From Gonapodya sp. JEL0774 (lineage: Eukaryota): 64,000 bases of DNA. The notes beneath the pieces are model-generated. The model was not told the DNA's origin, made no database searches, and saw only the letters and a program-made list of their open reading frames with translations. The DNA is taken from NCBI GenBank assembly GCA_027604505.1, contig JADIIX010000001.1, forward strand, positions 1-64,000, written 5' to 3'. Below are positions 3,001 through 57,794 of this stretch, in pieces. Every line of letters begins with the position of its first letter. Position 1 is the first letter of the stretch. Made by a program: the position numbers and the translations under genes.

Positions 3001-3011
3001 AGGATCGCCAT
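1..3011 (-). CDS. DUR3: Urea active transporter (sodium:solute symporter family), multi-exon, 3' end runs off the window
   Basis: Spliced translation gives [10 protein letters not shown]..., [88 protein letters not shown] and [29 protein letters not shown], all DUR3 signature blocks; canonical GT-AG introns. Confidence 0.95.
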
Positions 3012-3096
3012 TGTGAGAGCGTGTGGGTTGTTGGTGGGTCAAGCGTTAGGAGGGGCAGGTTTGAGAAGGTTCGTCTAAAACAACAAAGCCTCTGGC

Positions 3097-3516
3097 TGAT
3101 AGGGCAAATTATAAAGCGGGGGAGGGGTCGATAAGGAACCAATCAAGGGTCCACACCCCCAAATGCTTGGGTCCTTGGTTGATCCGATTTTTCCAAGGTT
3201 GGGGCACAGCGATAAGGAGAACAGATTAGTATTGCTCGGCAAAGTTGGTGATTAGTGCGTATATAGTCCCCACAACCATCATGACGCAGTTGGCTAAATA
3301 AATTTAGTTTCGGTCGTTTCTCATAACGCACAGATGTGTTCCACATGCCACAGTAACGGATTGCAGTAGGTGAAAAGGAGGCGTAACGGGAGGGCAAGAA
3401 GGAGTGTGGGTGGGAGTTTTCTTTTAGCGCCTCGCAAGTATTCGACTCTCCGATTACAGTGTTACGTGCGGCAGGTGGCCGGCAGCCAAACTTTTGTTGC
3501 GTTATTTTCATTATCT
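3097..3516. promoter_or_regulatory. GATA (GATAA/GATAG) elements upstream of DUR3, candidate nitrogen-regulation sites
   Basis: Identical CGATAAGGA at 3129 and 3210, TGATAG at 3097, TTATCT at 3511; DUR3 is a known GATA-factor (nitrogen catabolite repression) target in yeasts. Confidence 0.4.
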
Positions 3517-3881
3517 ACCGTTAGTTTACATAGGCATTAGTGCAAAGCACTAGCTGCTTGGTTGGGCGTTAGTGCCTGTCACGGCAACGCCTTCCCCGAA
3601 TAGCACATACAGACGGGATTTGAATCCGCGCTCGTTCTTCCAGACTGTTTCACCACTCAACCAAAAAAAAATATGGCACGATCGACAGTCAGATCAAGGC
3701 AAATAATTCGATTCTGCTATAGGATTGTGAATTTACATTTGTAATGATGAAACAGGAATAATTCCGCTCTATCGCACAGCTCGTCAACGTAGGGGTGGTG
3801 GGACGAGGTTCATTATTCGTCCAGTGCAGTCCGCAAAAAAATACCCAGAGAGTGCCTCACAGTAAAACGCTAGCACATATT

Positions 3882-6392
3882 TTACGCTGGGACGCCATCG
3901 ACGGTCATCCCCTCAAAGGACGCCCGATCCACTGATAATTCCTCTAAGATGGTCTCAGCAGTTCTGTCGTCATCATCCAATTTCTGACGCTTTGCAGACT
4001 CTGGCATGTCTTCATCATTGCCAACCTTGCGCGGTCTCCCTCTCGGTCGTGGCGCACGCGGGGAAGGCGAGATCGCCACCACTGCTGACGACCCCTTCGT
4101 TACTGCAAGTGCAGGAACGTACAAGAATTCCGACTCCTGTATTTTGCGCTTTGAAGGAGTTATGCGTGACTTGACAGAAGAGGCCATCCGCACAATGTGC
4201 TGTGTTATGGCTGACGCGTCAGCGGCAGCCCTCGCTGCCTGAGCGGTTGCACTCGCAGCGGCACTCCTCGCCGCATCTGCCTCCAGCTCCGCCAATCGGA
4301 TACGCCCGCCTTTTAATTCTTCCTCTAAAACTGCGTTCTCGGCTCTTGTACGCTCCATATCTGCCTCCAATTCCGCTAACCGCGCTTGCATTGACTCGAT
4401 CGCAGTGCGGGTTTCCTTGGCTTCGTTCTCCCACCATCGCCCTGCTTCCTCTGCAGACTCGACGCGTTCTCTCAAAGCTTGAGCAACACCGTCCACATTA
4501 CCAAGTGCTGCTGCCTCCACCGCCTCTCTCAATCTCGCCACTTCCGCCTCGGCTAACATCCTCGCCTCTTCCGCCTCCATTCGCGCTTCTTCCGCGGCGC
4601 CAGAGTCCAACCTGCCCTTTTCTCGCTCCAGATCAGCCTCCCTCGCGTTCAGCTCCGCATCCCGCTTGGCAACATCCAGATCCCTCATGGCCTGGTCCAG
4701 CTGCTTTTCCAACTCTCCGACATACCGCTCCAGGAATCGGACGTGATTCTTATGCCGCTTGCGGTAGAGCGCCGCAGCAACTCTATTTCGCTCCCTCTTC
4801 TTCGCTCGCTTCAAGGGATCCGCCTTTCCCGACAATGCACCGCCCCCCGCTGAATCACCCACACCTTCTAGCAAATCACCATTCGCAGCGTTCATCTCGT
4901 CCAAGTCACCATCTAAATCCCCTTCCTCGTTATCTCCAAGCTTGATTCCGATGTCGATCGCTTTGAACTCCGCTTCAGAGCGGGTGACAGACTCGGTGCC
5001 CGAAAAGCCCTCCGCAGCGGCTTCTTTGGCCGAGGCCTCTTCGAGTGCAGCCACATCTTCGTCGGTGAAACCGACGGCATTCTGAGCGATTGCTTTAGCA
5101 CGGGCTTTCGCGATGGCTGCAGAGCGGGCAGCGGATTGCACAATCTCGCCAAGGGGTCGAGATGGGAAGCTGGCACTCAAGGCAGACACTTTGCGCGGAT
5201 CGCGGGCACGTGTCGTCGGAGCAGGTTGAACGGATGTATTCGAGGACGCAGGCACGATGGTGTTGGAAGATGCTGAGGGAGTGGAGGAAGGAGAGCTCGA
5301 CTTCAACGGACCGACAGTCGCTGGATGAGCAAGGGCAGCTGGATGATTTGGGGCAAGATAAGTCGGTGGAGGTCTGGCACTGAATGGTCGTGGAGTAGCC
5401 TGCCCGGTTCTCGTCGATGCTCCTCGAAGAGCGATCGAGCCACCGTTTTGGGAGCTGAGGACAGGATTCGTGGAGGGAACGTTGTCGGGACTGGTAGATG
5501 GCAGCAAATTTACAGTGGTGTCAGGAGACGAAGCAGAGTGGAATATCAGGTGCGATTGGGACTCGCAGCTGGCATGGGTGGCTTTCAACGTTCAGTGGTG
5601 AGGTGGGGTCCACCACGCAAAATTCGATGTAACCATACCAGTCGATAATGATGAGGTCATAGTAGTCTGCAGTGGCGTCGGCTTCAGATCGGTACCTGTC
5701 GCGGGTGTCTTGATTCCGTCGGCCGTTACACTTTCTGTCTGGGGAGAGTGGAGTTGAAGCCTGCTGGTGCGCTCCGGCATCCTCCTTCGTCTCAACGATA
5801 CGCTCTCTGAGGGAGCAGAAGCATCAGGAAGTAAGATGGTCGCTTCAGATTCAGACGGAGATGTGACCTCCAGAAGTGGATTCGCGGACCCGTCCGAGGC
5901 ATCGCGTTGGGGATATTGGTGGGGGTTCTGTATGGGTTGCAAGGGCACGAAAGGATGAGATGCAGCGCCATTCACACTTCCATTTGCACTTGTGTGTTGA
6001 GATGAAGTTACGGGAGGAGAAGTTGGGAACTGAATTGGAGTCTTCGGTGTGTTCGGCGGGGACACACAGGGAGAATCCGAGGTGGAGCTGGCAGCTTTAA
6101 TGACGTTGGTGCTGAATTTGATTTTGAGCTTTGGAATAGTCGATGAAGGTATGGTTGACGGAAGTGGGGGTTGATTGGGGAGTGGCGGGGCTATCATGGT
6201 GGAAGTGGCGGTTGACCTTGAAGGTTGCGAAATGTGAGGACTGGTGTCAACGGGAAGCGGCAGCGGTGCCATTGGTTCTATTGGAGGGTTTGTGTCCACA
6301 GTCATGCTCGATGAAGAAGAGATGTCGTCAGCCCGATCCAGTCCATCGCCCATTGTGAGTGGGGGAATGAGACCAGCTGACGATGTAGCCAT
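3882..6392 (-). CDS. bZIP transcription factor with long coiled coil and C-terminal AT-hook (2 exons, intron ~5583-5638)
   Basis: Basic region and zipper KRAKKRERNRVAAALYRKRHKNHVRFLERYVGELEKQL; AT-hook PRPRGRPRK; ORFs 5592-6518 and 3882-5588 join in phase through gtatgg...tgaaag; start codon uncertain. Confidence 0.85.
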
Positions 6393-33902: not shown

Positions 33903-35616
33903 ATGACTGAACCCACCTTGATGGACGAGGAACGGTATGGAATAACGTCTGTTGTGGAGGAGAATGGCGCCAAGACGTACAAATGTCTTGAATGTGGGAA
34001 AAAGCTTTTGAGGTACGGGATTTCGTACTTCCAAATCAATGAGATTATTGGCATTCAACTTCCTGTACTGCAGCAAGCGTGCATCGAACTGGAGGGATCA
34101 CATCAAAACTCACGACAAAGCTCGGGAGCGACTGAAGTGCCCGTTTTGCCCCTCCCAGTTTCTTAGGATGGGGTACTGTTTAAATGCCGTCTTCGTTGAT
34201 CACGCCGGACAACACATTGACTGACTCCAACATAGTGATTACCGTCGACATTACAATCTGCATATGGGGAAAAGTGAACTGGAGTGCAATGTTTGCAGAA
34301 AGCTTTTTTCGAGGCGAGTCATAGTGGACCCAATGATGTTTGCAACTTGTGGTTCGATGTTCACCGATAGAACCATCAAATCCACACCGACAGACCTGAC
34401 CACTTTACTCGACATACAAAACGCGGTTGTGCCAGTATGCGGACTGCACCGTTTGGTATCAATGGCAGTTCCCATATCAGTGGAGCCCACCCACAAATCG
34501 CTTTCCTAACACCGCCATTCAACGCTCAAGACACTCCCGTGGCCGTCGTTTCTCCTATTTTGGCTGCGCAACCTTCCATAGGTGTTCTGTCTCCCATGCT
34601 TGCTGCCCAACACGCAGTACTTTCTCCAATGCTGGTTGCTCAGCATTCGATTTCTACACCTTTTCTCGCAACTCAGCATCCTGGCATATCACCAGTTATC
34701 TTGGCGCAACATGCAATGCTTTCGCCAATGCTGGCGGCGCAAAATGCTATGACGTCGCCCATGCTCCTTCCTCAACAACTCATAACGGGGGTTTCGCCAA
34801 TGATGACCGCGCACGGCGCTTTGATGTCACCCATGCTCCTTCCTCAACAGCCCATGACGGGGGTTTCACCAATGATGTTAGCGCAGGTTTCACCCCAAAA
34901 CGTTTCCCCGATGCTAGGTGCTCATACAGTCGTGAATTCTTCCATTAATCTTGCTGTGGCACAGTAAGTTGTCCCGTTATGCTCATGCGATTTTGAGTCA
35001 ATATGTATGCTTCCTCTGTCACAGGGACAGTAGCAATTCGGGCTTACTCATGGTGCAACAAGATAACCTCATTCCGTCCTCCCTTGATAGTGGTGCTGCG
35101 TTGCCACCTGACACGCACACGGTGACCCCGCCTCAAGCGACACCCATCACAACTCCGATATTCACATCTGAATTCATGTCAACATATGCATCTGTGCCAC
35201 GTCGCATGCCTTTCAACACTTATGGACTTGTCTCGGAAGGCAACTGCATGCAAACACCTCCAATGACGCCAGTCTCTGTGGCCGGAGGAACAGGAGTTGT
35301 ACTCGCACCTATACGGCAGTTCCATGCGCCCTTATCCACGGGAATATTTGCGCCGTCCACGTACTTTGTTCCCGACATGGAGGTCCTCCCTTCGCCTGCT
35401 CTCGACGCCACCAGTCCCACCTTGGTTGCGACACTCCCCCATCAGTTTCTGCCACAACACTTCGTGGGACCGCAGCTCGCGAAACCTGCGACGTCGGGTG
35501 AATCACCCTCTTTTCCATTAGCGATGGGATCGCGGCAGTTTGAAGACATTTGCTTGACTGACCCTGTGGATGTAAATTGGGCGGCTGACACGGAATTGCT
35601 TGAAGGTGATGAATAG
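33903..35616 (+). CDS. C2H2 zinc-finger transcription factor (two C2H2 plus one C2HC finger) with Ser-Pro repeat region
   Basis: CLECGKKLLSKRASNWRDHIKTH, CPFCPSQFLRMGDYRRHYNLH and CNVCRKLFSRPDHFTRHTKRGC after splicing (third intron is GC-AG). Confidence 0.85.
34540..34920 (+). repeat. Coding tandem repeat of ~11-aa SP(M/I)L units
   Basis: VVSPILAAQ / VLSPMLAAQ / VLSPMLVAQ / MLSPMLAAQ / MTSPMLLPQQ / LMSPMLLPQQ; near-identical DNA copies of cccatgctccttcctcaaca...gggggtttcnccaatgatg. Confidence 0.8.
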
Positions 35617-39174: not shown

Positions 39175-42100
39175 ATGCCACCACGCGGACGGAAACCCAA
39201 TCATGGAAGGCGAAGGAATGCAGCATCAAAGGGCCGTCCCTGGACTGAAGTTAATGGTGGAGAAAGCGCAAGTCACGATGCCAACGGAGATAATGGTTCT
39301 CAAAAAGACACGTCCCCACATGAATCCATAACTGTGTCTGGTTCCGAATCTGGCATCGAATGCAGTAGTACTATACCGAGTAGCTATCGCTCCCACCAAT
39401 CAGGTCTGGAGCATTCCGAAGACAGACCAGAGCACATACCTTCAAAAGTCCAACTTGACCAGAACTTCGATTCATACCACCGTGACCGCATCGTTGACGA
39501 AGAAGAAACCGACGAAAGTGCTGTGGGTGGAGATGCCTTCGCAGAGCCGCCGGTATCTTCTCTCAGAGAAGAATCCATGAACTCACCACATTTGATCTCC
39601 AATGGACCCCGGGGTTTCATGGATGAAGATGACAACCGCATTGATGAAGATGAAAATCTCACCGATGATGACGTCCCGCCTGCTGGAGATGGAAGTCAAG
39701 GATTATCACCAGTGATCAGAGACACGGTTGGATTCTTTGTCCACCAAGCTGAATCCCCGCGCGTGAGTAGAATGAAAAGACTGAGCAAACCGGAATCTGC
39801 CGGACATGTTTTGACATGTCTGTTGGATATAGACCGGAAATCACCTCCTTCCCTCTACCACGACTGATGGCCATCCAGTTGCACCGGCATTCACAAATCG
39901 CCCCACTGACCCAGCCATGGCGATTTTGGGCCGCATACTTGCCCAAACGTCACGTAAAAGAAACTTGCCGAAGTCGCCGGATGCAACCTCCTCCTCCATC
40001 ACGTTTGGACGATGGGATGTGCGCAGGCATTCACGTGGGCTGGAGAGGCTGTTGAGCAATGGCGGAAACGACGATATCTCATTATCGAAGTCTGACTTGA
40101 CATCAACGGAGGATCGTCTGGATATCGAAGGAGTCGATAATGGCGAAACGATACCCGTCTCCGACAAAACCAAAATGGTGGTCTCCACATCATCCGGGTC
40201 TCCAAACACTTCGTCACTGCAACCTGCTTTAGATCCGACGCTCAGTCCATGTCGAGGAGAAAGCCCTGCTAATCAGGAACTTTTTGCTCCTAACAATTCG
40301 CAAGACGGTTTGCGATCGTTCAATTCCCTGTCCACTGCCGAGAGTGATGGGGATCAACACTCATCGGCCCCATCGTTGATATCCTCTCCTCTATGGTCGC
40401 ATCGATCAATCGCGCCCACTGCCGGCCCAGCCCTCCCACACCGGCCGGCAGACTTGATCACATATTTACTTACGTGCTCCACTGGTGACCTTCAGGTCGT
40501 ATTGAAGACATGTGGTCCAGCCATCTTCTATCACCCCCCGATTCCCTCAGACCCACTGGACCGCGCCAGTCCCCAGACAATGCCTTGGACAGCGCTTCTC
40601 GTTCTCGCTGCGGGTGGGAGAGCGGTTCACGCAGCCCGCTTTGCTCGAAGACCCGACGTTAACACAATGGTTGCCGCTGCGCTGGCGAACCCTCGTGTGT
40701 GTGCGGATGCCGCTGCAAGGGCGGGTGTAAGCGCGGTGCTGGCAAGTTGGGCTAGAAAAATGGAAAAGGATACCCGGAGGCAGGTAGCGCGGTGGAAGCG
40801 GGATGCCGAGAGATCGAGAGACGAAGCTAAAAGGGCAAGGGGCGAAAAAGCGAAGGTGTTGGAGGACCGGGAGAAGATGGGAGAAGTTTGGAAGCATGTC
40901 GAGGAGGGTATCGCTGCGTTGAAGGATACGCAGGTGAATATCCAGAGAGAGGTGGAGGCCCGTATGTCAGCGCGGGAGAGGGACGCTCAAATACACCTGC
41001 AAGAGACGCAGACGAAACTTCGAGATGCTGTGACAAGGATTGAGGATGTAATGGGGGAAGGGGCAAGGCGTGTGATCGAGCTGGAGCGATTGTTAGAAGA
41101 AGCACGCGACGATAAGGCGCGCTTGCAAATGGAAGTGGAAACGGCAAGGGCGGATTCCATACAAGCAAATAGCAAAGTTGCCGCTGCTATAGTGAAGACA
41201 GAGTTGCTCAGACAGGATCTGATGGACGCAAGGGCTGAGGCTGGCAGAGCGAGGAAGGCCGGAGAGCAGGATGCAAAAGAAGTGAAACTTAAGATGGAGA
41301 ATTTGCTTAAGCTGGGGGATGCACAAATTTCGATGCTTAGAAAGCAGCGGGATGCAGAAATGGAGAGCGCCGGAGCTGAAGTGAAGAAGCTGGAGCAGTT
41401 GATAAAAGAAATGACAGTTGAGAGCGAGTGCGCTAAAAGAAAACTTGAAGAAAAAGTGAATGAAGTCATCGCCGGAAAGAAGGAGCAAGACCTTCTGCGA
41501 GGTGATCTCGCAAAGATGGAAGAAGACCGAGATCGTTGGGCCGAGCAGGCTCAAACGGTATGGTCCCGATGTGCTCGATGGGAAAACATTGCAGCGGACC
41601 TCTGGAAGAGCAGAACAACCTTTGAGGACAAGTCGATTCAAACACACATAACGGCTGGGGAGTCCGTAAATTCTCAGCACGCTTTGTGGTCATCTTCTTC
41701 AACACTCGATCTCGATGGCACTTCATGCATGTTGTCACAGCTAGAAGAAGCGAGTGAGACTCTTCAACGTCTTTTCGAGGTTTCAGAATGTGACAGGGAA
41801 CTAGTGGATGAACCTACTGGAAACAGATATGGACCAAAAAATGCTGGGCAGGTGGATCCAGAAGACGACTACGCTATCAGAAGTGGTCTTCCTAGGAGCG
41901 CCAGTCAAAGAAATCGCTCAGCGGAGTTCGTTCCGGAGGGCAGCAAACAAATGTATGATGAGGAAGCAGCCGATTATTGTCTTCTCGATGAAATACCAGA
42001 ACCGAGGCTTGAACAGCGCAAGAATGAAAAGAACACTTGTACTACTCGTTACACATTGGCACTACTCGAGCAACAACTTACTGACGCCACATCCCGCTCA

Positions 42101-42868
42101 CAAGAAACGATGAATAAAGCTCACGTCATTCGTGACTTTCTTGACACTCTGATACGGCAACTCACTATCGCAACAGAACGAGCGGCCCTCCTCGATGTTG
42201 AGCTTGCTTGCTCAAACGCTCGTGAATCCAATCTTATTGCCACAATGAAAACCTTTGACAATAATTCTAACCAAGTGGACGGAAGCTCTCTACCGCATTG
42301 CCATAACCCGTTGGACAGTCAGCTTCGTGAGGTGAGCAAAAGCATTGAGCGACTAAATTCCAGCGAGAGCCATATTGAAGAGCTGAGAGGAACGAGGGCA
42401 AGAGATAATATTGCGAAGCTTGTTGATAGAAACACCGAGCAGGGGGGCGAGGGATCAGGGGAGGATCAGGTTTGTCCGAGTTCAGCCACTTCCGACACCG
42501 ACAGCCACAACTTGTTCCCTGAAGTTCAAAATGGAATTCGAAAAGTGGGAACCTTATTTACTTTCGGAATGAGCGCAAAAACTTTGGTGCAAGAACTTGC
42601 GCACAGTTGCTATCCAACCCTTGAACGGGTTGATTCACCGAAGGACGATTCCTTGGTTCTCTGTTCTCGCGAGCCAGAAGACTTCTCGCCGAGTATGGAT
42701 CCATCTGATATGCTTGGGGTGGATAGTAAAGAACGTTTTTGTGGGTCGACTGATAGAGACATTTGGACGGGCAGTTCAATCATCTATTTGGCGATAGGTT
42801 TAGTTTTACTGGTGGTGATGATTGCGTGTCATTCAGGTTGGCTCTCAAATCAACAATTTAAAATTTGA
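39175..42868 (+). CDS. Large coiled-coil, tail-anchored protein (intron 39763-39832)
   Basis: 230-aa and 983-aa ORFs join in phase 0; long E/K/R/A heptad region; C-terminal TM IIYLAIGLVLLVVMIA followed by a short tail. Confidence 0.8.
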
Positions 42869-43085
42869 GTTGGTCTTTGAAGGAATCACAGCCCATCGGT
42901 TGGTGGATAGAGTACACCACTAATCCAATTTGCCGGGCAAGCGTGCACCCAACCTCCACCCATCTCGTTTGTTCTCAGCTCCTCAACCTTACAGAACCTC
43001 CTAAACGGAACGTCTCGGACACAAAGAGGAAGGACGTGGAGTGCGACAAGCCGGCACCAATCGGAGGGCTCTGGGGCTCAAGCTG

Positions 43086-46000
43086 ATGTCAATATTTCTC
43101 TCAAGCTGGAATGTTTTGATCTGCTTGTCTATATTTTTATGTCTTGCGATTTTAGCGATGGCGGCCGTGGAAGGGGCAGTAGAAGGTGGGTTGTGGTGGG
43201 AAAAGTTCCAGGAGGCAGAAACTTCCGTCTTGAGTGCAATCCACCTCTCTGTCGACTCGAATGTTACAAAATACGTCACGATTCACTCACTTCGTGATTT
43301 TGGCACCCCATTTTGCTTCTTGAACTCATCCAGATCACGTCGAGAAACCTGGAATTTCTGCTGGGAAGCAATTGAGACTGCCCAAGCATTTTGACTGGGA
43401 GTCGTCCCCTCTGTATGAACGCAGAGTACAACCATGTATAGGGGAGCTCGCGCCGTGTGGAGAATGGTGCATGCCGAGGGGTGGTCAATGTTGCACCGCA
43501 TCTGGAAACTGGTGGTGAGACATCGCAATGAAACATTTCACTGTTCGGGCAAGTTTTGGTATTTGATCAATCGAATAGGTGTCCGCCTGATACGCAGTGC
43601 ACTTCCAATGGGTGCTCTGGGTGTACCTCAACTTGCGAAGGGAGATGTGAAACGTAAGGACGGATCGTGTACCTCACCAATGTGAACTGTAGCCTGATCT
43701 AAAGCTATGCTTCACATATGCAGACAATCGGGATTTCTGGTATCATATTTGGATTGTGGTAGAGTGAGCAATCAATCAATCCAATGAGCGACAATGTCAG
43801 AATTCTAATTTCTTTGATGCGTTACTTAGTGTGGTAATCAGTGGTGAGGGTCAGATGATGATAGAGCGTACTGGAAGTATCAAACTTTGTGCTTTCTTTT
43901 GCAGCTGGGATCCTCCGAACGGGGCTGGCTACTGCGCCTTGGGTGTCTGCAATTTTGGTGAGTTATGCAGAATATGCGTTCAGCGGAGCTACCGACCCTC
44001 AAACACTGAATGAATCTCTGGGCAGCTTGTGATGACGGTTTTTCTTACAACGGCACGGCTTGCGTGAGGGGTCTGTACTATTCGTCAACAATCACTTGTG
44101 AGTGAGTCCGATAGAACGTCTCAAGCGCGCCTGTGATTTGCATTCCTCCTTCTCATTCTTCAGCTGACTTGGTGACGAAGATTGGCTCTCCTGCCGCGAC
44201 AGCCACATTATCGGTCGGTGTAGGACTTGAATTTAACTCACCTACTGGAGCCGCGAATAACAATACACAGTGAGTTAACCTTGAAACAAGACACTTGAAC
44301 CCACAACGCTCAACGCTGTCTCATATGTACATATTCAGAGATACTTCTTGGTCCAACTCCTTCCCCGTTGCGGCAGTTTCGGGAGGCCTTGCTGGTGCTG
44401 TTGTAATACTTTGCGGAACTCTCCTTTGTGTCTGGTCAATACGTCGCCGCAAAGGAAAAGTAAAAACTCCAGAGTTGGCACTGCTTCCAATTGCTGTCAT
44501 TGATGCTGACCCGCGAAAGTCGGAGATTGATTCAAATGATCGGCATTCACTGGTAGATTTATCGGCTTTAGAAGACGCTGATGCTGAGGGAATAGCTGGC
44601 GAAGACTCCAAGTCCGAATCAACGTGAGTGAGCCCCTCGTGGAACTACTAGTATCCTGTCGTCTGGGTTCCTGCGTCGGTTCTGGTTGTGATGCCCGCAA
44701 ATGTCTAACCAGAGCCTTTGCCTAAAGCAACGCGCGAACCTTGTCTTCCTCTGCGACATTTGTATACACTGCAACCAAGCACAATCGAGATAACAGTGCA
44801 CCACAATCAGATCTGGTGAGCCGGACAGCAAGCCAGTCAAGTACCGGGACATCTCTTCCTTCATGGGGTAGAATGTTGGGAGAGGCTGGCCGGTCTTCCT
44901 CAATCGCTCTGAGCAGTGTCACTGTAGGGAGATTGTCGAGGGACACGACGCGCAGAGAGGGTGTCTTCAGAGCGTTGTCGTCGAAGACCACCAATACGAC
45001 GACCACAACTGTGACCACTGCGAGAGTTTCTATTGACAGCGGAGTGAGTACTTGCTAGTAGCGGTGATCCAAGTTACGCAGCATAGTGACTGAAATAGTT
45101 TCGCCCTGTCATACTTGTTGCCGAAAAGGTGCATGTAAGTATCAAAGAGCTCCAGGTCTCTCAATCCAATCTCACCGAGTCCGCTCTGATATGTTCCATT
45201 CGCCGCTTTTCGCATCAGTGGCTGTACAGCCGGATAGCTAACCCAAAAATGAAATCGGAAAAACAATTTGTTGAGTACTCGGGACCACCTCTCATTGCGA
45301 TCGCCAAGGTAGGGATTATATCCAGCACTGCGGTGTTTAAACTCACTTAAAGATTCCTGTTGGACTAGCATGACTCAAAATCTGCAGATGAAGTGTCAGT
45401 CTCTCCAGGAAATATCATCACAATGAGCACGGTGTATAAAGACGGGTGGGGGGTCGGGACAAGTGGGTGACGTCGGTGCGAAGGTTTTGTGTGGTTAGTG
45501 AATTTGAACCACCTTGGTGTTACGTCTTGGAATCTATGGGTATCCTCGCTGGTGGCACTCTAAGACGTGAGCGCTGATATGATTTTTCGGAATGGATTTG
45601 GGTAACAAACTCAATAATTCAATGATCTTCAGCTTGACACCGGCATGCACGGCTTTTTCCCCTTAGATTGCCTCCAATTAACTTCGTTTTTAAGTTCCAA
45701 CGCTGTCACTTCTCCACTCCAGCCTCCCACATCACTGCCAACCCCTACCAGGGTGGAATCCAGTTCCCCGCTCGCCGCCGCCAGACTTGCCGCTGACGCG
45801 CCTCTTCGGTCCCGCCCGACCTTTTCTGCGCACCAGAAAGGTCGCATTAGTCGGCAGAATGATACCAAGCCAGTTTTGAAACCTTACGATTTTCGTACGA
45901 GGGGTGGTTCGTCCTCAAATGCCTCACATTCGGTGCTCGAGCGGATTAGAGGTGAGGCCGATAATGCACATATTTCAATGGTGAGTAACAGGGCATTATT

Positions 46001-46255
46001 ACGTATCAATGAACCTGCTCATTTCCTTAACACCGGATTGCCGATTTCCATGGCCTGCAGCAGCATTCACATCTGCGTGTCCAGATTGTGGGTGTCCCCG
46101 AACAGGTTGTCACTTGGGGTGGAGTGGATGCGCAGACAATTGATGAAGAAACCGTTGGAGCTTCCCCTGCTCCTTCCTCCTCTTCTCAAGACCGACGCAG
46201 CAGTCATGCTGTTGTTAATCAGCGAAGGACGATCCAACGACAAGAGACATGGTAG
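43086..46255 (+). CDS. Receptor-like protein: signal peptide, Cys-rich (STIG1/PriA-like) ectodomain, single TM, cytosolic SH3
   Basis: MSIFLSSWNVLICLSIFLCLAILAMA; DCGRCGNQCWDPPNGAGYCALGVCNFACDDGFSYNGTAC; TM VAAVSGGLAGAVVILCGTLLCVWSI-RRRK; SH3 IAIAKHDSKSADEVSVSPGNIITMSTVYKDGWGVGTNLDTGMHGFFPLDCL, which needs the 2-nt exon at 45565-45566. Confidence 0.75.
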
Positions 46256-48318: not shown

Positions 48319-48755
48319 CGGGGATCTGGTGGGATATGAGCATAATTGAACATACAGAGGGAGTTTGAAATTCAATCCAGCATTTCGTTTCCCCATATTT
48401 CCTGCCATCGCGCCCGAACGTAAGATAAAGGAGGATTGTTGAGAATACACAAACAGTTTCGAAGCTAAACAGTATATATGGCAGTCCCCCCCGCAAGTTC
48501 AATACATATTGAATAGTGCAAGATAGGGAAAACGAAGAAAACACCATTTCAGGGAAGTCTGCAAGTATCCAATCAGTGGTATACATCTGTCTAAGGAGGA
48601 AGCAAAGAGCTTTTCGAGTTACGTACAGTCGCAAATTGTGGGCGCCCATTCATTCCGCGCATCCATACATCATCTCAGCCGGACACCCCAGTCACAAGCT
48701 GACGGATGCATCCGCTTCTATTAGCTTGATTTTGTCCACCCAGATTCTCACACCG

Positions 48756-51167
48756 ATGATGGGAACGCGGGCAGGAGTGGCTGCTGGCGCGGAGGGACCT
48801 CTTATATCGCCAACGCCAATTTTGGGGGAGCTACAAAGAACTTCGAGTGGCGATGTTAGTCCGAAAACTCCAATAATTGAAGTACCTACATCGGCACTAG
48901 TTCCACTCTCTCCTTTGCAGCCTCCGTGTGAAGGACAATTGGCTTCGCTTGGCAACCTGGACTCTCGAACATATCCAAGTGAAAACCCGACCTTACATTC
49001 TCTCGCCGACTCTTCGCCAAAGCAGTTGGATAGTCTACCGGAGAGAATTGCTGACGGAGATCACTGGCAGCGCTTGGAAAAGGACTACCAGCACACCATC
49101 CGCATCCTTCGAGCTCTGCTCGAGGACGCAACCAGCTCCTCTGCCTCCGCCGATGGCCCGCGAAGTACCCTCAACACCAATGCGCACTCTAGGCTAAGTT
49201 CAGGTTCCGTACGGACAGGCTCGTCGTCTGCTATGAGCTCGGGCACTGGTGACGAGGACGATCCGGCTCAATCATCTAGGAGCTGGTTTTCGATTTGGGG
49301 GTCTTCTACTGAGGACCCACAAGTCCGCGAGCTTACACGACAGCTGCGTAGGTCACGTGCGGAATGTGCAGAGCTTGCCCTCGAGTCGGTTCACCTTCAG
49401 TCGGTGGTCGAGAACAAGGAGCGAGAGTTGGCGACTGTGCGAGGGCTGCTCGACGAGGCTCGACGCGTAAAGGAAGAAGCGACCAGCCACATTGTGGCAT
49501 TCAAAGAAGCAGCAGATGAGGGCTGGAGGGAAGTAAACGAATTGCGCCATCGATGCCTAGAAGCCGAGCAAGCCAGAGCTCAAATCGCGGCAGCTTGGGA
49601 GGCTGAAGCGAAAATTCGTCGTACAGCCGAGGAAAAGCAGTCGAAATCTGCTCTTGAGCTGGGACGCATAGAGCGGGATCAGAGAAATCTGGCAGAGTTG
49701 AACGCTAAGCTGGCGCAACGCATGCGTGAACTCGAAACTGCATCCCAGGTTCCATTGGCTGTTCCCCCAGCACAAACACCCGTTAACTCCATGCTCTCTA
49801 TCCTATCCAACGTTGCCACCATCGTGCCTGGGTCCATACCCAAAGAACCCGCTCTGGCGCCACCATCTGCATCTGCATCTCCATCTTTGGACGTGGAAGC
49901 AATTACCGGGAACCTCCGCGCTACGATTGCGACGCTCCGATCGGAGCTGGACATATTCAAACGGCGGGCTGTTGCTGACGCGGGGGCGCGCATTTCGGTT
50001 TTCGAACGTGACGAAGGTCGAGCGAAGGAGCGGGCACTCAAGGAGGAACTTGCAGCAGCAATCGAGCGCGCGGATGAATGGGAGCGTCGGTGGCGGGACA
50101 CAGGTGGGCTGGGTGCTGAGGTCGCACTCGAACGAATACGTGACGCACTGGTAGAATGCTTTCCTCGAGATGTGGAGCAGTCATCCGCAGACTCAGTGAT
50201 TTCTGTTGAACCGCTCATCGCGCATATTCGGCGAGCCGGCGCGCGGTGGGCGAGGGCGACTGTGGAACTTACGGAGTCAGCTCGAACACATGATGCGCAA
50301 CATGCCAAGATTGAAGAGTTGATGGGGCGATCGCCAGTGCCACAGCCTCTGCGAGTGCCACCTCTCAGGTCCATTAACTCTCTTCCACCGAGCCTCGAGG
50401 CGAGTCAGTCGTCTGTTGGCGTGCCTCCATCATCTTCTGGAAGACGTTCGAGCGGTGCATCAATCATCTCCATGGGATGTAGTTGGGACCGTGGAAGCAG
50501 TGGCAGAATTGCAGAAGGCCCTCCTCCATCCGAAGAAGTTCCGCACGCACTCATAACTCGCCGAGAAGGCAGTAACTTCCTTGCTCGCACAGGATCTTCC
50601 ACATCCGTTTCGAGTGTCGGACCCTCCCCCTTTCCACCGTCTCCCTCCCTCTCGGCCGCTCCGTTCCCCTATGCGCCATCATCATATTCTCCGACACCCA
50701 CGGACCTCGAGTTTGATCCACCGAGACTGGCCACAGCAATGCGTGACCTTTCGAACCGCTACGCCCTTTTGCAACAGCACTCGCAAAGAGCGGACCAAAA
50801 ACTACAAGGACAGATTCGTGCAAATCGAGAGCTCAAACGACTCATCGTAGAGGGCACAGTTGGTCGACGTAAGGAAGAGGGGGATGCAATACTGAAACTC
50901 GCTGATACTGTGAGCGAACTAGAACGGGTGAAGGCGGACTTGGTGCAGGAGAGGATACGTGTGAGGGAGCTTGAGTTTGTAGTTGGTGAGATGGCTGATG
51001 CGCGAGCTGACGACGGAGAAGATGAGAATACCCCTACAGAAATCGGGGCAGATGCTGCACATGAACAAAGGTCAGAACGGGCGGCCAGTGTAGTGGGAAC
51101 ACCCAGCGCAGTTGTAGAGCTTGCGAGCATCGTAATGCGTCGAGATCAAAACAATACGTTACTCTAG
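48756..51167 (+). CDS. Hypothetical coiled-coil protein, intronless
   Basis: Single ORF of about 800 aa from the first ATG, with several heptad coiled-coil segments separated by Ser/Pro-rich linkers. Confidence 0.8.
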   Translation: MMGTRAGVAAGAEGPLISPTPILGELQRTSSGDVSPKTPIIEVPTSALVPLSPLQPPCEGQLASLGNLDSRTYPSENPTLHSLADSSPKQLDSLPERIADGDHWQRLEKDYQHTIRILRALLEDATSSSASADGPRSTLNTNAHSRLSSGSVRTGSSSAMSSGTGDEDDPAQSSRSWFSIWGSSTEDPQVRELTRQLRRSRAECAELALESVHLQSVVENKERELATVRGLLDEARRVKEEATSHIVAFKEAADEGWREVNELRHRCLEAEQARAQIAAAWEAEAKIRRTAEEKQSKSALELGRIERDQRNLAELNAKLAQRMRELETASQVPLAVPPAQTPVNSMLSILSNVATIVPGSIPKEPALAPPSASASPSLDVEAITGNLRATIATLRSELDIFKRRAVADAGARISVFERDEGRAKERALKEELAAAIERADEWERRWRDTGGLGAEVALERIRDALVECFPRDVEQSSADSVISVEPLIAHIRRAGARWARATVELTESARTHDAQHAKIEELMGRSPVPQPLRVPPLRSINSLPPSLEASQSSVGVPPSSSGRRSSGASIISMGCSWDRGSSGRIAEGPPPSEEVPHALITRREGSNFLARTGSSTSVSSVGPSPFPPSPSLSAAPFPYAPSSYSPTPTDLEFDPPRLATAMRDLSNRYALLQQHSQRADQKLQGQIRANRELKRLIVEGTVGRRKEEGDAILKLADTVSELERVKADLVQERIRVRELEFVVGEMADARADDGEDENTPTEIGADAAHEQRSERAASVVGTPSAVVELASIVMRRDQNNTLL

Positions 51168-51246
51168 ATTCATTCAGCATAAGTGTATCCATTAAAGTAA
51201 TTATATTGTGTTTCAGCGCGGAAACTACGAGAAAGTGAGCGCAGCT

Positions 51247-52326
51247 CTAAAACAAATCGAGTACCGCGAGTAGAGCCGCCCAGGTGTAACCCAAAAACGA
51301 GAAGACTGCGAATGCGAGTGTAGCTTGAAGTTTCGAACATTCAGAATTTCCGGTGATTCCTGAGCAGATTGATGTCACGGGACTGTAGGCGCCCATGAGG
51401 GCAATCCAAAAGATCCAGAATACAACGAGGACTGAACAGATACAACCGACAAAAGCCCAGCACACGGAGTCAACTCAATACAGGGTACGTGAGTCCCAAA
51501 TACAACTCACAGGCAGCAAGTGCTATGGACACGTAGCGCTCGCTCTTGAGAATATTGTTTGCAAAGCCTGCGATCTGTGCACGACTTTTCTGTGAGCAAC
51601 ACGAATACACATGAAACCCTCTGTTATATGCGTACCTTCTCTTGCAAAACTATGAAGATGAAACCAATGTGAGCAGTACACGATGCTAGGGGGAACGTTC
51701 GACAGGTGTGAGAACTCACGTTCAAAGCGGAGCCAATACTGGGCTGCGAAGACCATGCCCAGAATCCAACCCATCAAACCCACAAACACTGCAAAGCCAA
51801 CCTAAAGTCCATAGCAATGCTAGACAGATCAGAAGAACGGTTCAGGTCCCTGACTGCACATGAAAGGCTCACCTCCGATGGCTTGATTGACGTTGCAGCA
51901 GCACAAACAAACACAATGAAGGAACAAAAGGCGAGGATCGTCCAAGTTATTGCCCATGCTAGGCGTGACGTAGCTTTAGCGAGCCACGGATAATCCCAAG
52001 GCCTGGTGGTCATCCCATAGTCTGGAGGCGGAGTAGAATCTTTTGGGTCGGAGAGCAAAGCAAATAGAACCATGAATTTTGTTATGCCGTTCCGCAAAAC
52101 AGAAAATTCACGATTCCCCGGGAAAATGATGGAGGAAAGACCGAGATTCCTGCGAGGATGACCGTCTGGGAACCGCGCTATCTATCAACTGAATGGATCT
52201 TGACTTTGATATTACTGAGTTCCATTCAACTGCGACTGACGGTTGCCTGCTATGATCCCGACTCCAACAAGCACTCCTGAGACACCCACATCCACCTTCT
52301 CCAGCATATCTATAACTTTCTTGCAT
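51247..52326 (-). CDS. MARVEL-like four-transmembrane protein (start uncertain)
   Basis: Four hydrophobic helices after splicing: LAWAITWTILAFCSFIVFVCAA, VGFAVFVGLMGWILGMVFAA, IALAAFLVVFWIFWIALMGA and CSKLQATLAFAVFSFLGYTW; C...C-x3-QAxxAF pattern. Confidence 0.75.
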
Positions 52327-52457
52327 TCTGGTTCAGTGTTGTTCTCAGAGAATCGGTTATCTGGAATTCCAGATTCAAAAAAGTTGTCAATCTCTCAGGA
52401 CTCGGCCTTCCTCTGTAACTTTACTTGCTCGGCTCTGCACCGCCAGCGAGCAGGAAA

Positions 52458-52500
52458 GGACACATCAAGCCACGGACACATCAAGCCACGGACACATCAA
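52458..52500. repeat. 16-bp tandem repeat (ggacacatcaagccac, ~2.7 copies)
   Basis: Perfect direct copies at 52458 and 52474 and a partial copy at 52490. Confidence 0.9.
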
Positions 52501-52801
52501 ACTGGGATTACATAAAGTGAAATTCGATGACCACCTAAGCTAATGTCGTTGTCAGCAGCAGGCAGGCAAGAAATGTAACTTTCAGGGAATGTTGTGGATA
52601 AATACTACGATGTGAGCACCAACAAAGAAAAAACCACCTGCCGGAAGTCGCGCCCACATTTGTAAAGGGAGGTGGTATGGTCAAAGTTGCGTTGGTGGAT
52701 ATTAGAGTATTACGTACCTAGAGTTGTATCCAAGATGGAAAGCCTACAGGCGGGGGTGGGGGGTGAAAGTGCGGCCCAGTGTTCAACACAACAACCAAAA
52801 A

Positions 52802-54043
52802 ATGTCTTGTTCCGGGGCGTCATCAGCCGCGAGAAATTTCTCTTCCGCGCTATCTTTGGCATTTCTTCGACATTCTTTTTCCTCCTGTGCTACCAAATCC
52901 GTCACGACCTCCCGCTCAATCTTCACCTCACCAATCGATGCCGTCCGCGCTACGCAACGTGGACCATTGACCAGAATATCACCCTCAACATTGGTGGGAA
53001 TATTGACGCCATCTGCACCTTCTCGGCGGCATCTTTGGTTTGGAGCTCTCGCAGCCAAACGCAAATCCGCCAAGAAGCACAATAAAGTTGTGGGACTTAA
53101 AGAGGGTGAACGGAAGACAAGAAGGCTTGCCGGGAAAGTTGGAATCAAGGAGAAGGTTGTGCGGTTCGCAGAGGGGAAGATTCCAGGATTGGAAGAACTG
53201 AAGGGGAAGGTGAGTTTCTTCATACCGCGATGGATTGAGTTCCATATGCTAAAACAAAGCATACTGTTTACCTCTCCTCTCTGGCTTTTCTTCCTCGCTT
53301 CGATGGACTCCTTCGTTGGGAATTTGGTGTGCCCAGTATGTCACTTTCCAGAAGACATTCCTCCATCTGTCCCCAAAGCGATTTGTCGGATTCAGGAAAC
53401 GGCTGGTTGGTCTAACCCTGGACCAGGCTGTCTTGCAAGCGCGGTGGAGCCAGCGTCGGACGGGGAAGATGGTGGAAAGATTTCTTTGGTCAGCAGCGGA
53501 GAAGGCTGGACGAGAGGGATTGGATGTCAAAAATATTGTGGTCGGTGAGTGCCAGACAAAGATTTTGATGAGGCTACGTTATTATAAGTGTGAAGTCCCT
53601 TTCTGTGGGATCTACTCTGCGTGAGAGGGTACTCGTACCCTTCTGGTACGGCTGAGGTCGTCTATGCATTGATGCAGCAAAGCTTATGCTATTTTCGCGG
53701 CCTATCGTGATGGTAGCAGTCTCCGTTGCTCGTGTCTATCTCCCTGACCCTTGTCTGCAATCCACCAGCTCGTACAGGTCTTGTTGTACCCGCACCCCTC
53801 CCCAAGGGTTATCCAATCCAAGGCCGCGGCACATACGGTGCCATTCCACATGCCAAAACCTGCCTCTTCCAGATCGTTATGGTCCAGTCAGATGCATTGG
53901 ACGTTCGCCCCCGCCCGTCGCCCCGCGCTACGAGTGAAGAACAAGCACAGAGGATTGCGGAAATGAAGGAGAGAATGAGGGAATGGGTGGCCCCGAGACT
54001 AAAGCCTGTAGCTCCGAGGAAGTTTAAGGAGATTTATGTGTAA
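52802..54043 (+). CDS. MRPL22: Mitochondrial ribosomal protein uL22m
   Basis: R/S/A-rich presequence; L22-like core FLHLSPKRFVGFRKRLVGLTLDQAVLQARWSQRRTGKMVERFLWSA...LDVKNIVV...QGRG. Confidence 0.75.
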
Positions 54044-54194: not shown

Positions 54195-56187
54195 ATGGTG
54201 AGGTGGACGAAAATACATCCATGCAACGATACGATCCTGTTGATCCCATCCCACCCATCCTCGTGACCGGTGCTGTCGTCGGCAAATCCCGCCACAATCC
54301 AAATGCCAACCGCCCCAACCTGCTCTAATCCTCTGTCCCCGCGTCATTCACATTCCCCGCACCGGAATTTCGTTTGACGGTGCCAGGATGAGGAATATGA
54401 TGTGGTTGTCCTGGGCACAGGTCTGACTGAGTGTATATTGTCCGGCTTACTCTCCGTCGAGGGCAAGAAAGTGCTCCACATGGACAGAAATGACTACTAC
54501 GGGGGGGAATGCGCGAGCTTGAACTTATCCCAGGTCCGTGGCATGGCTTAAGGCGCTGTTGAATGGTTGGGAATGTCCTTTTTACTCTTTGCTCAAATGA
54601 ATTCTCGACGGTTGCGCGGATTCTTCCTCTTCTTGCTAGATCTTCCGGAAGTTCCGCAAGGATGCAACCGCCCCGGAATCGCTGGGCAAGGATCGGGACT
54701 GGAACATCGACCTTATTCCAAAGTTCGCCATGGCGAATGGCGAGTTCGTCAAAATTCTGGTGTACACCGACGTTACCCGCTACTTAGAGTTCAAACAGGT
54801 AGCGGGGTCGTTTGTGTACAGGGACGGCCGTGTCGCCAAAGTGCCAAGCAATGAGGTTGAGGCTGTCAGCAGTCCTCTCATGGGCATCTTCGAAAAGAGG
54901 AGGGCGCAAAGGTTCTTCCAGTTCATTCAAAAGTACGACCTTGAGAACCCGGCCACCCACGAGGGTTCGTGAGATCCTGTGTGGATGCCAGTATTCACTG
55001 TTCCTGCGATTCACGACCCCTTGCTTTGAACTTCAGGCGTGGACATCAAGAAGGCCCTTATGTCGGAAATTTATCAAAAGTTTGGGCTTGAAGTAGGCAC
55101 GCAGGACTTCATCGGTCACGCGCTGGCCCTCCACCTTGACGATTCGTACAAAACGCGACCGGCACTCGAGACGTACGAAAACATTAGACTGTACATGGGT
55201 TCCATGGCCAGATATGGGAAAAGCCCATACATTTACCCAATGTATGGGCTTGGGGATCTTCCTCAGTCTTTCGCCCGGTAATTAGCGTGTTTTTGCCGAT
55301 CTGACTACCACCTCCGAATCATTGTTGATTCACGCTGGGGTATCTCCGTTAACAGTTTGTCTGCGATTTACGGTGGAACGTACATGCTTAGCAAGAATGT
55401 GGATGAGATTGTCTATGGTTCTGACGGAAAGGTCATTGGCGTACGTTCGGGTGAGGAGGTACGCAGCTCAGTCATCGCGTTTCATGTCATCTACTTGTCC
55501 ACTTCACATATCATCTGGCGCAGACTGTGAAATGCAAAGCTGTTATTGCAGATCCCAGCTACGTTCCGAGCAAGGTCAAGAAAGTGGGGCAAGTTATTCG
55601 GTCCATCTGTCTCCTCAATCATCCCATCCCCAACACCGGAGATTCGGACTCGCTTCAGCTAATTATTCCCCAGAATCAGCTGAACAGGAAATCTGGTGAG
55701 TTACCGCTATACATCACATTATTGCAGCTCAGGAATGGACAGTGGATAAAGGTTGCTCATGAAAGTGCTGACCCTCCTCTCGTTTTAGACATATATATTG
55801 CCGCGGTCTCCTTCGAGCACCGAGTATCTGCAAAAGGCTACTGGATTGCAATGGTTTCCACCATAGTTGAAACAGGTGTCCCTGAAAATGAGATTCACCC
55901 CGCAGTACAGCTCTTGGGGCCGGTCTTGGAGAAGTGAGTGGGTCTCGTACAGTCTTCTCAATGAAACACGTGTAACCCTTCAGTTTCCTAGGTTTAATTC
56001 AGTCGTGGACATCTACGAACCAATATCGGATGGCAAAGACGACAACGTCTTCATCTCCAAGTCATACGACTCCACTTCGCACTTTGAGACCGTGACAGAT
56101 GATGTCAAGGATCTGTACTCCCGTTACTGGGGAAAGCCGATCGATTTCAAAGGAAAGATCAAGAGAGGCGATGAGGAAGCAGAGTAG
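54195..56187 (+). CDS. GDI1: Rab GDP-dissociation inhibitor (first coding exon is ATG only)
   Basis: [88 protein letters not shown] and [10 protein letters not shown]. Confidence 0.97.
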
Positions 56188-56443: not shown

Positions 56444-57794
56444 ATGAACCGCCAGCCACCACCTCAATCCAATGCGTTCACCGAGCTTCGGGAGTGGTTT
56501 CTCTCATTACCGACTGTCACACGAACCCTTTTTGCGCTCTACGCTGGTTTGTATGCCGAAATTTCATCCCCAAATTGGATTGGATGCTCTCGATGCAGAG
56601 TGGCACGATAACGATCTTTCAAGTCGAGGATGTCTGCTGATTCAAGTCCCTCCAAACCCGACCAACACAGGCGTGACTGTGGTGGGCAACCTAGGAATTG
56701 TGGCTCCTTTTAATTTGATCCTTGAACGGGATGCCGTGCTCCGACGCCTGCAACTGTGGCGACTTGTTACCCCTTTCTTCTTCGACAAACTCGGTTTCAA
56801 CTTTCTTGTGAACCTGTACTTTCTCTACAAGACCTCGTTTGAGCTTGAAACAGAGTTGTTTGATGGAAGGACGGCGGATTATGCATGGTTCATTATGCTA
56901 TCGATGGGAGGGCTTTTGGTAAGTGGTCTGTTCATGGGAGTATTGAGTAGGTTCACACGGTTGAGAGACTTGAAATACCACATTTGCAATATAATATGGA
57001 ATCATATTGGATGATGGAATGAGATTGCTGGCGAGTGAATGCACTAACACGGAGAAACGGAACTCAACTCGAAGCGGAACTCTTGTCAACCGGTATCAAC
57101 AATCATCTCCGTTTGCTATGCTCACACGCGTTTGTTCTTGTAGATCCTGGGACTGTTAGTACCGTTCTATCTCCTCTCCGAAGCCTTGAACATGGCCATT
57201 GTAGTGCGTACCGTCCCATTCTTCTTTAAGCGTCAGCATCATTAATGATGGCGACTCTCCCGCAATTATTTTCTTTGAAGTACATTTGGTCTATATTTAA
57301 TCAAGATAAGCGTGTCAGCTTCATGTTTGGTGTCCAGTTCAAAGTAAGTCCCGGGATCCCCATTTCTCACTTCCGAATGTCAAGATCTGAAGCAACGGAA
57401 TATCTTTCTCTCGCAGGCTTTGTATTTTCCTTGGGCTCTCCTCGCGATGGACTTTTTCACACAGGGTTACTTCCCCTGGGTCAAACTTGCGGGTTTGGTC
57501 GCCGGACACGCGTACTACTTTTTGGACAGAGTATATCCGGAGATGCCAGGTGGTCGCCGGCTGATCACAACGCCTGCTTTTGTGTCTGCGTGGTTCCCAT
57601 CGGTTGGCGCTCGAATGGGAGGAGTCAGTGGTAGTACGGTGGGGGCCAGTGGAGCAGGCGGAAGAGGAAGCATGACCAGTGGAATGGGATTCTCAGGAGC
57701 CGTAGGGAGGCGTCCAAATACAGGGATAGATGCGGCTGGAAGTGGCAGTAGATCATATTTTACAGGTTCGGGGAACAGATTGGGGACAGAATGA
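56444..57794 (+). CDS. Derlin (ERAD rhomboid pseudoprotease) with SHP box
   Basis: WFLSLPTVTR, QLWRLVTPFFF, FELE..FDGRTADY, YFPWALL and GLVAGHAYYFL; C-terminal FTGSGNRLG p97/Cdc48-binding SHP box. Confidence 0.93.

Follow-up and report, generated by a model that had tools for sequence, protein, structure and literature searches.

Two-base exons are rare and already described, and exons of one to three nucleotides have been published for fungi and plants. In the basidiomycete Coprinopsis cinerea, a long-read annotation reports 57 two-base exons in 50 genes, and omission of the small exon creates a stop in 63 of the 89 genes with an exon of 3 nt or less (PMC12230235). The one-nucleotide exon of Fusarium CYP621A is backed by 20 orthologues and by SRA reads (PMC12940212), and for the one-nucleotide exon of Arabidopsis APC11, studied with mutant constructs, a putative branch point has been placed 44 nt upstream (PMC4674806). 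Reports on microexons add information on the order and geometry of splicing: in plants the upstream intron is more often retained and the downstream one is mostly out first (PMC8831610), the downstream intron of most SRRM4 microexons is spliced first (PMC10250204), and neural microexons have a longer distance from branch point to acceptor (PMC12871342).

The exon considered here, a dinucleotide AC that would complete an asparagine codon within an SH3 domain, resembles several of these systems. As in C. cinerea, it would be an internal 2-nt exon in a fungus, where omission often leads to a stop (PMC12230235); as in CYP621A, a phase mismatch falls in a conserved motif, the exon forms part of one conserved codon, and the combined introns come to about twice the median length (PMC12940212); and, like the APC11 exon, it appears constitutive and frame-essential, with a candidate branch point far upstream (PMC4674806). 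The systems differ in their evidence, as the C. cinerea exons come from long reads of a basidiomycete (PMC12230235), the CYP621A exon is a single base with orthologues and reads behind it (PMC12940212) and the APC11 exon is a construct-tested plant example (PMC4674806), whereas the present two-base fungal exon is predicted from DNA.

The locus lies in a window of 64,000 nt, the whole stretch of Gonapodya sp. JEL0774 DNA that was analysed, which is eukaryotic in character, with about 50% G+C and short GT-AG introns. Gonapodya is a monoblepharid fungus, and the Rab GDI exon in the window shares 87% identity with Gonapodya prolifera, against at most 72% with every other fungus listed. The features of the two SH3 genes found are collected in Table 1; on re-reading of the sequence, the coordinates that the original prediction had given for AC and for both of its introns proved exact.

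Table 1. Features of the two SH3 genes, with positions counted from the first nucleotide of the window.
Feature	Position	Strand	Remarks
Membrane-protein gene, single-pass, cytoplasmic SH3	43906..46255	+	Hand-built model, inferred from DNA; 5' end and start codon unplaced
Exon, predicted transmembrane helix followed by basic cluster	44339..44623	+	Translation, hydropathy scan
Exon, first SH3 strand	45219..45308	+	In frame in model; alignable to relatives
Exon, SH3 RT loop to conserved Trp	45369..45462	+	Pfam SH3_9, PDB matches
End of upstream exon, GGG ACA A	last base 45462	+	First base of Asn codon
Upstream intron	45463-45564	+	102 nt, GTGGGT...CTCTAAG
Candidate distant branch point	45496..45502	+	A at 45501; score 5.6, about the reference median; chosen after the fact
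Putative two-nucleotide exon AC	45565-45566	+	Completes AAC (Asn)
Downstream intron	45567-45632	+	66 nt, GTGAGC...TTCAG; in-frame TAA; length near the median of 68
Exon, last SH3 strands (Gly-x-Phe-Pro) and low-complexity tail	45633..45980	+	Contains rival acceptor 45666
Next intron further 3'	45981-46084	+	
Second SH3 gene, receptor-like: leucine-rich repeats, transmembrane stretch, SH3	about 21900-19250	-	Pfam repeats sub-threshold; two junctions unplaced
18-nt SH3 exon of second SH3 gene	19873-19856	-	
9-nt SH3 exon of second SH3 gene	19772-19764	-	

The gene that holds AC was modelled by hand with 523 codons and 10 introns, all GT-AG, and is stop-free. From an N-terminal portion that contains Cys, its protein runs through a single hydrophobic stretch, the basic residues next to it, a linker rich in Ser and Thr and the SH3 domain to a low-complexity tail. 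The exon reaching to the conserved Trp matches positions 5-34 of the 49 in Pfam SH3_9 (E 0.0023; 18.2 bits, under the cut-off of 30), all 19 of its PDB matches are chains of SH3-bearing proteins, and its Atlas look-alikes are SH3 clusters with scores at lead level. For the first 21 residues from 45633, the sole PDB match is an SH3RF1 chain (E 1.7). Pfam gave no match to the separate upstream or downstream SH3 pieces, none of 1265 candidate homologues matched the C-terminal exon at E<=1, and no metagenome contig carried an exact 24-nt stretch of the exon after AC. The spliced protein has the acidic RT-loop pair, the Trp and the Gly-x-hydrophobic-Pro of the SH3 family at the family spacing. The aromatic RT-loop pair is absent, with Ala and His in place of two tyrosines of the relatives P0237 and P0233; RT-loop aromatic residues form part of the pocket with which SH3 domains bind proline motifs, so the ligand pocket of this domain may be atypical.

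A profile search yielded 176 proteins; hypothetical proteins from Mortierellales, Neocallimastigales and Chytridiales make up most of the 120 listed, none of which is named as Gonapodya. A hydrophobic stretch precedes the SH3 in 80 of the 98 single-SH3 matches listed. The spliced SH3 aligns with P0237 without gaps, at 48% identity over 50 residues, and five identical residues run across the junction. Together with P0233 and P0138, P0237 shares with the present protein one internal hydrophobic stretch, the same SH3 spacing, the Asn and a Pro-x-x-Cys ending; the similarity to these transmembrane-plus-SH3 relatives is limited to the SH3 (37-48%), and the RT-loop tyrosines are theirs, replaced here. 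The present protein probably acts as a sensor or adaptor at the cell surface, one of the transmembrane-plus-SH3 kind common in early-diverging fungi. A separate group of Chytridiales matches (P0121-P0136), with 670-1540 residues and 280-690 bits on a 54-column SH3 profile, consists of long tandem SH3 arrays.

One argument for the small exon is the reading frame. At its best donor the upstream exon ends in phase 1, and the exon behind the downstream intron, which opens with CTT GAC at 45633, is in phase 0, so two bases are missing between the SH3 halves. AC is flanked by AG and GT, which leaves two introns of spliceable length (102 and 66 nt). The claims that skipping AC shifts the frame and that retention of the second intron runs into a TAA both stand: direct joining gives Thr-Thr-stop at once, and the TAA, at 45603-45605, is met after 13 codons. 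Retention of the first intron leads to a TGA at 45468-45470. Since the SH3 is complete only if AC is spliced in, a two-base exon is very likely, and with good confidence AC can be read as a constitutive exon that the ordinary spliceosome would join, completing both the Asn codon and the frame. The four splice sites, the stop-free model, the stop upon skipping, and the fit of spacing and residue to the SH3 family are read directly in the sequence; that both introns are removed, successively, we infer.

The yardstick for splice-site quality was a set of 34 other introns in five of the window's genes, assigned manually on the basis of reading frames rather than transcripts. They span 49-225 nt with a median of 68, introns of 189 and 225 nt included; ranks are leave-one-out scores of these reference introns. 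All four sites around AC fall within the range of the window introns. Donor 45463 equals or beats 16 of the 34 reference donors and donor 45567 eight of them, and the acceptors at 45632 and 45564 equal or beat 11 and four of the 34, respectively, the latter being weak. AAG acceptors occur in six reference introns, GTGAGT is the leading donor (11/34), and GC donors are found in none. The Rab GDI gene, with seven introns in total, has its start codon cut off from the rest of the coding sequence by an intron of 189 nt (54195-54386); the 225-nt intron at 56919-57143, in a Der1-like gene, holds a second branch-like CTAAC near 57044, and no extra exon seems needed there. By eye, each C2H2-like finger of a long gene on the minus strand (16580-10460), which we take to encode one GATA-like and three C2H2-like zinc fingers, apparently has an intron within it, in nearly the same position each time, and an ORF at 34371-34935 appears to carry about ten degenerate Ser-Pro-Met-(Leu/Met) repeats after a zinc-finger-like start.

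A further argument is the geometry of the SH3 domain, which was compared with a sample obtained by a motif scan modelled on the protein, with the distance from Trp to Gly left free between 6 and 16 residues. The scan found at least 118 loci; 116 of the 118 listed were parsed into 107 unique cores, and L029 and L103 were left out as not in frame. Among these 107 listed cores the spacing is 11 residues in 70, 9 in 21, 10 in 8, 12 in 4 and 16 in 4. The two-base exon yields the commonest spacing, 11 residues, and places Asn at Trp+5. Of the 19 listed cores with a Pro-x-x-Cys ending, as found here, 16 show the 11-residue spacing, and all but one of these carry the Asn (15/16); after thinning to below 70% identity, Asn stands at Trp+5 in nine of ten such 11-residue cores. 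The profile search matches listed also show the 11-residue spacing in 154 of 158 cores, a circular figure that gets little weight because the profile was seeded with 11-residue cores.

Spacing bears most directly on a single 180-nt intron (45453-45632) from the GTCGGG donor, which would remain in frame, keep both Trp and Gly-x-Phe-Pro, and give the best single-intron path (36.5 bits) with a hairpin four residues shorter. Its 7-residue spacing occurs in none of the 107 listed cores, and no listed core falls below 9, although the search admitted 6-16. It would also make Val-Gly-Thr intronic, the Gly of which is kept in 64 of the 70 listed 11-residue cores and all three residues of which are identical in P0237. 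The donor had been called weak, and indeed it scores below all 34 reference donors. This intron is extremely unlikely.

A profile built from 61 thinned listed cores was used to score all 8219 in-frame, stop-free splice paths with up to three introns of 30-330 nt and GT or GC donors. The comparison of SH3 scores with and without the exon proposed in the original prediction came out in favour of AC, whose path ranked first of the 8219 at 50.3 bits, against 36.5 and 31.8 without it. In a restricted set of 73 paths (GT-AG only, introns of at least 45 nt, sites in range) the runner-up to the AC path reached 31.8 bits. The AC path still ranked first with a profile excluding Asn-bearing members (39.3 vs 36.6 for the next) and with a profile of short-spaced SH3s only (33.4 vs 29.5). 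Among the 16 possible dinucleotides Asn is best, with a gain of only about 2 bits over other residues. When the two flanking exons were entered separately in a MAFFT alignment, the single empty column between them was the Asn column. The claimed match to the SH3 pattern is borne out, the two-base exon model winning every sequence test run. For the predicted placement of the Asn in a beta-strand, a related SH3 (L104; pLDDT 97.7) was used for structure prediction in place of the spliced protein. In this model strand 33-38, which comes after the conserved Trp, ends with that Asn, so the proposed placement is fair.

The alternative with the best splice sites, which the original prediction did not consider, is a single 204-nt intron (45463-45666) as the main splice, with AC intronic. 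Its donor and its acceptor both reach a strong 7.4, which for the acceptor exceeds 30 of the 34 reference scores, a branch-like motif lies 30-41 nt upstream of acceptor 45666, and introns of 189 and 225 nt show that such lengths exist in the window. Its product would keep the frame and even make the Asn (A+AT), at the cost of eleven residues with Gly-x-Phe-Pro and a truncated SH3. It scores 31.8 against 50.3 bits on the SH3 profile and would drop the C-terminal motif match, which intronic DNA would not keep; as the main splice it is very unlikely, and it is more plausible as a minor isoform.

Other arrangements have been considered within the same set of paths. The best path lacking the pair of acceptor 45564 and donor 45567 reaches 45.4 bits and requires a GC donor. 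With a GC donor at 45573, an exon of 8 nt (45565-45572) stays in frame and scores 45.3 bits, yet GC donors are found in none of the 34 hand-placed introns and its spacing of 13 in none of the 107 listed cores. GTATCCTC at 45540-45547, inside the upstream intron, resembles a minor-spliceosome donor, which would count for a minor-spliceosome arrangement; a path through 45540 needs a 36-nt intron, against a shortest of 49 seen, and scores 39.2 bits, and the resemblance is probably due to chance. Spliceosomal twin introns are nested: the external intron has one of its splice elements broken up by an internal intron, and the bases between are themselves intronic. The only nested, stwintron-like layout that rebuilds a donor here has an internal donor scoring -2.5, and its product (45432-45632) loses the Trp and falls to 18.3 bits; the locus was therefore not assigned to the twin-intron class. 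Taken as one group, the 8-nt exon and the nested and minor-spliceosome arrangements are the least probable of the alternatives.

To gauge how readily such a pattern arises, the 170-nt interval was shuffled 20000 times with dinucleotides preserved and ends fixed. AG-NN-GT with both introns of at least 45 nt appeared in 4072 shuffles (20%), any frame-restoring exon with in-range sites in 6193, an exon of 2 nt whose splice sites fall within the window-intron range in 812, and one that also codes for Asn in 121 (0.6%). A stricter tally, for sites matching the observed ones in strength (17 of 20000), was set aside since its rounded thresholds shut out the real sites themselves. AG-NN-GT alone is weak evidence, since it is frequent in shuffles; the case consists of motif, frame, spacing and residue together. 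The same figures bear on a single 170-nt intron (45463-45632), in which two coding bases would have been lost by mutation or assembly error and AG-AC-GT would stand by chance, an explanation to which the ease of AG-NN-GT and the upstream half without a nearby branch point lend some weight. It requires a 2-nt loss exactly at the exon edge together with the 0.6% coincidence, in a gene whose other nine junctions and 523 codons are intact, and it too is extremely improbable. A search for repeats or shared intron sequence hinting at an origin of the introns returned none, the best off-site matches being 11-12 nt (E>=0.29).

The branch points count against the exon. A simple branch motif is present in 26 of the 34 reference introns and in neither intron flanking AC. 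On a motif derived from window sequence, the upstream intron reaches no more than -1.5 for a nearby site, lower than any of the 34 leave-one-out values (minimum -0.2), a weakness that the original prediction overlooked. The downstream intron has weak candidates only; the branch motifs of the window, taken from the 34 reference introns, are very loose. Further upstream, the candidate A45501, the one reasonable site in this upstream intron, lies 38 nt past the donor and 63 nt ahead of the acceptor, with no other AG on the way. Its score is also reached by a quarter of exon 45-mers, and the AG-free stretch of 64 nt is unexceptional, stretches of at least 63 nt occurring in seven of the 34 reference introns. 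A45501 is a lead, not a result, because exon stretches score alike and long AG-free stretches occur.

Under the two-base exon reading, the major spliceosome would most likely take out the introns in succession, because the upstream AG lends its G to the downstream donor as position -3 and both sites cannot be occupied together. The score of donor 45567 is 4.5 before and 6.1 after removal of the upstream intron. We lean slightly towards the shorter downstream intron leaving first, with the upstream intron following later by way of the distant branch point A45501 and the next AG, because plant, SRRM4 and neural microexons and APC11 behave alike in order or branch distance. In plants, where the order has been measured, the flanking introns are likewise removed in sequence, the upstream one often late (PMC8831610).

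In transcripts that skip AC, a premature stop would precede intron 45981-46084; such messages would probably be degraded, and the exon is therefore probably constitutive. Splicing to acceptor 45666 would leave the frame intact and remove the last SH3 strands, a form that may exist as a minor isoform. The exon was also set against SRRM4-type regulated animal microexons and is not placed among them, as its length of two is not divisible by three and loss of the exon leads straight to a stop. A bolder interpretation, which we regard as unlikely, would see a splicing switch on a receptor SH3: inclusion would give the full domain, skipping would destroy the message, acceptor 45666 would yield an in-frame receptor with a dead SH3, the distant branch point would be in control as in plant and vertebrate microexons, and SH3 segments of the family would have gained microexons repeatedly.

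The window holds a second, receptor-like SH3 gene, a paralogue. Three phase-0 introns (68, 83 and 79 nt) divide its SH3, which scores 40.8 bits with both small exons and 21.4 without the 9-nt exon. It also has the 11-residue spacing with Asn. The small exons of the two genes are independent, because none of the SH3 intron positions is shared. The statement that AC adds to another ultra-short exon in the window holds insofar as this 9-nt exon was found. Both SH3 genes found would have microexons (2/2), at different positions, in the window as read by eye (all of it save 1-4900, 39900-43000, 48500-53800 and two short gaps).

As a class, exons of this kind are little changed by the present example, exons of 1-3 nt having already been published. 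Searches of open-access papers brought up no title or abstract on such exons in fungi of chytrid grade or in an SH3 domain of fungi, and the phenomenon would thereby extend to another fungal branch. Gene finders will mis-join this SH3, because the strongest-looking single intron truncates the domain. With introns of only 102 and 66 nt, the locus would offer a compact substrate for the problem of two spliceosomes on overlapping sites, to which a distant branch point may be a general solution.
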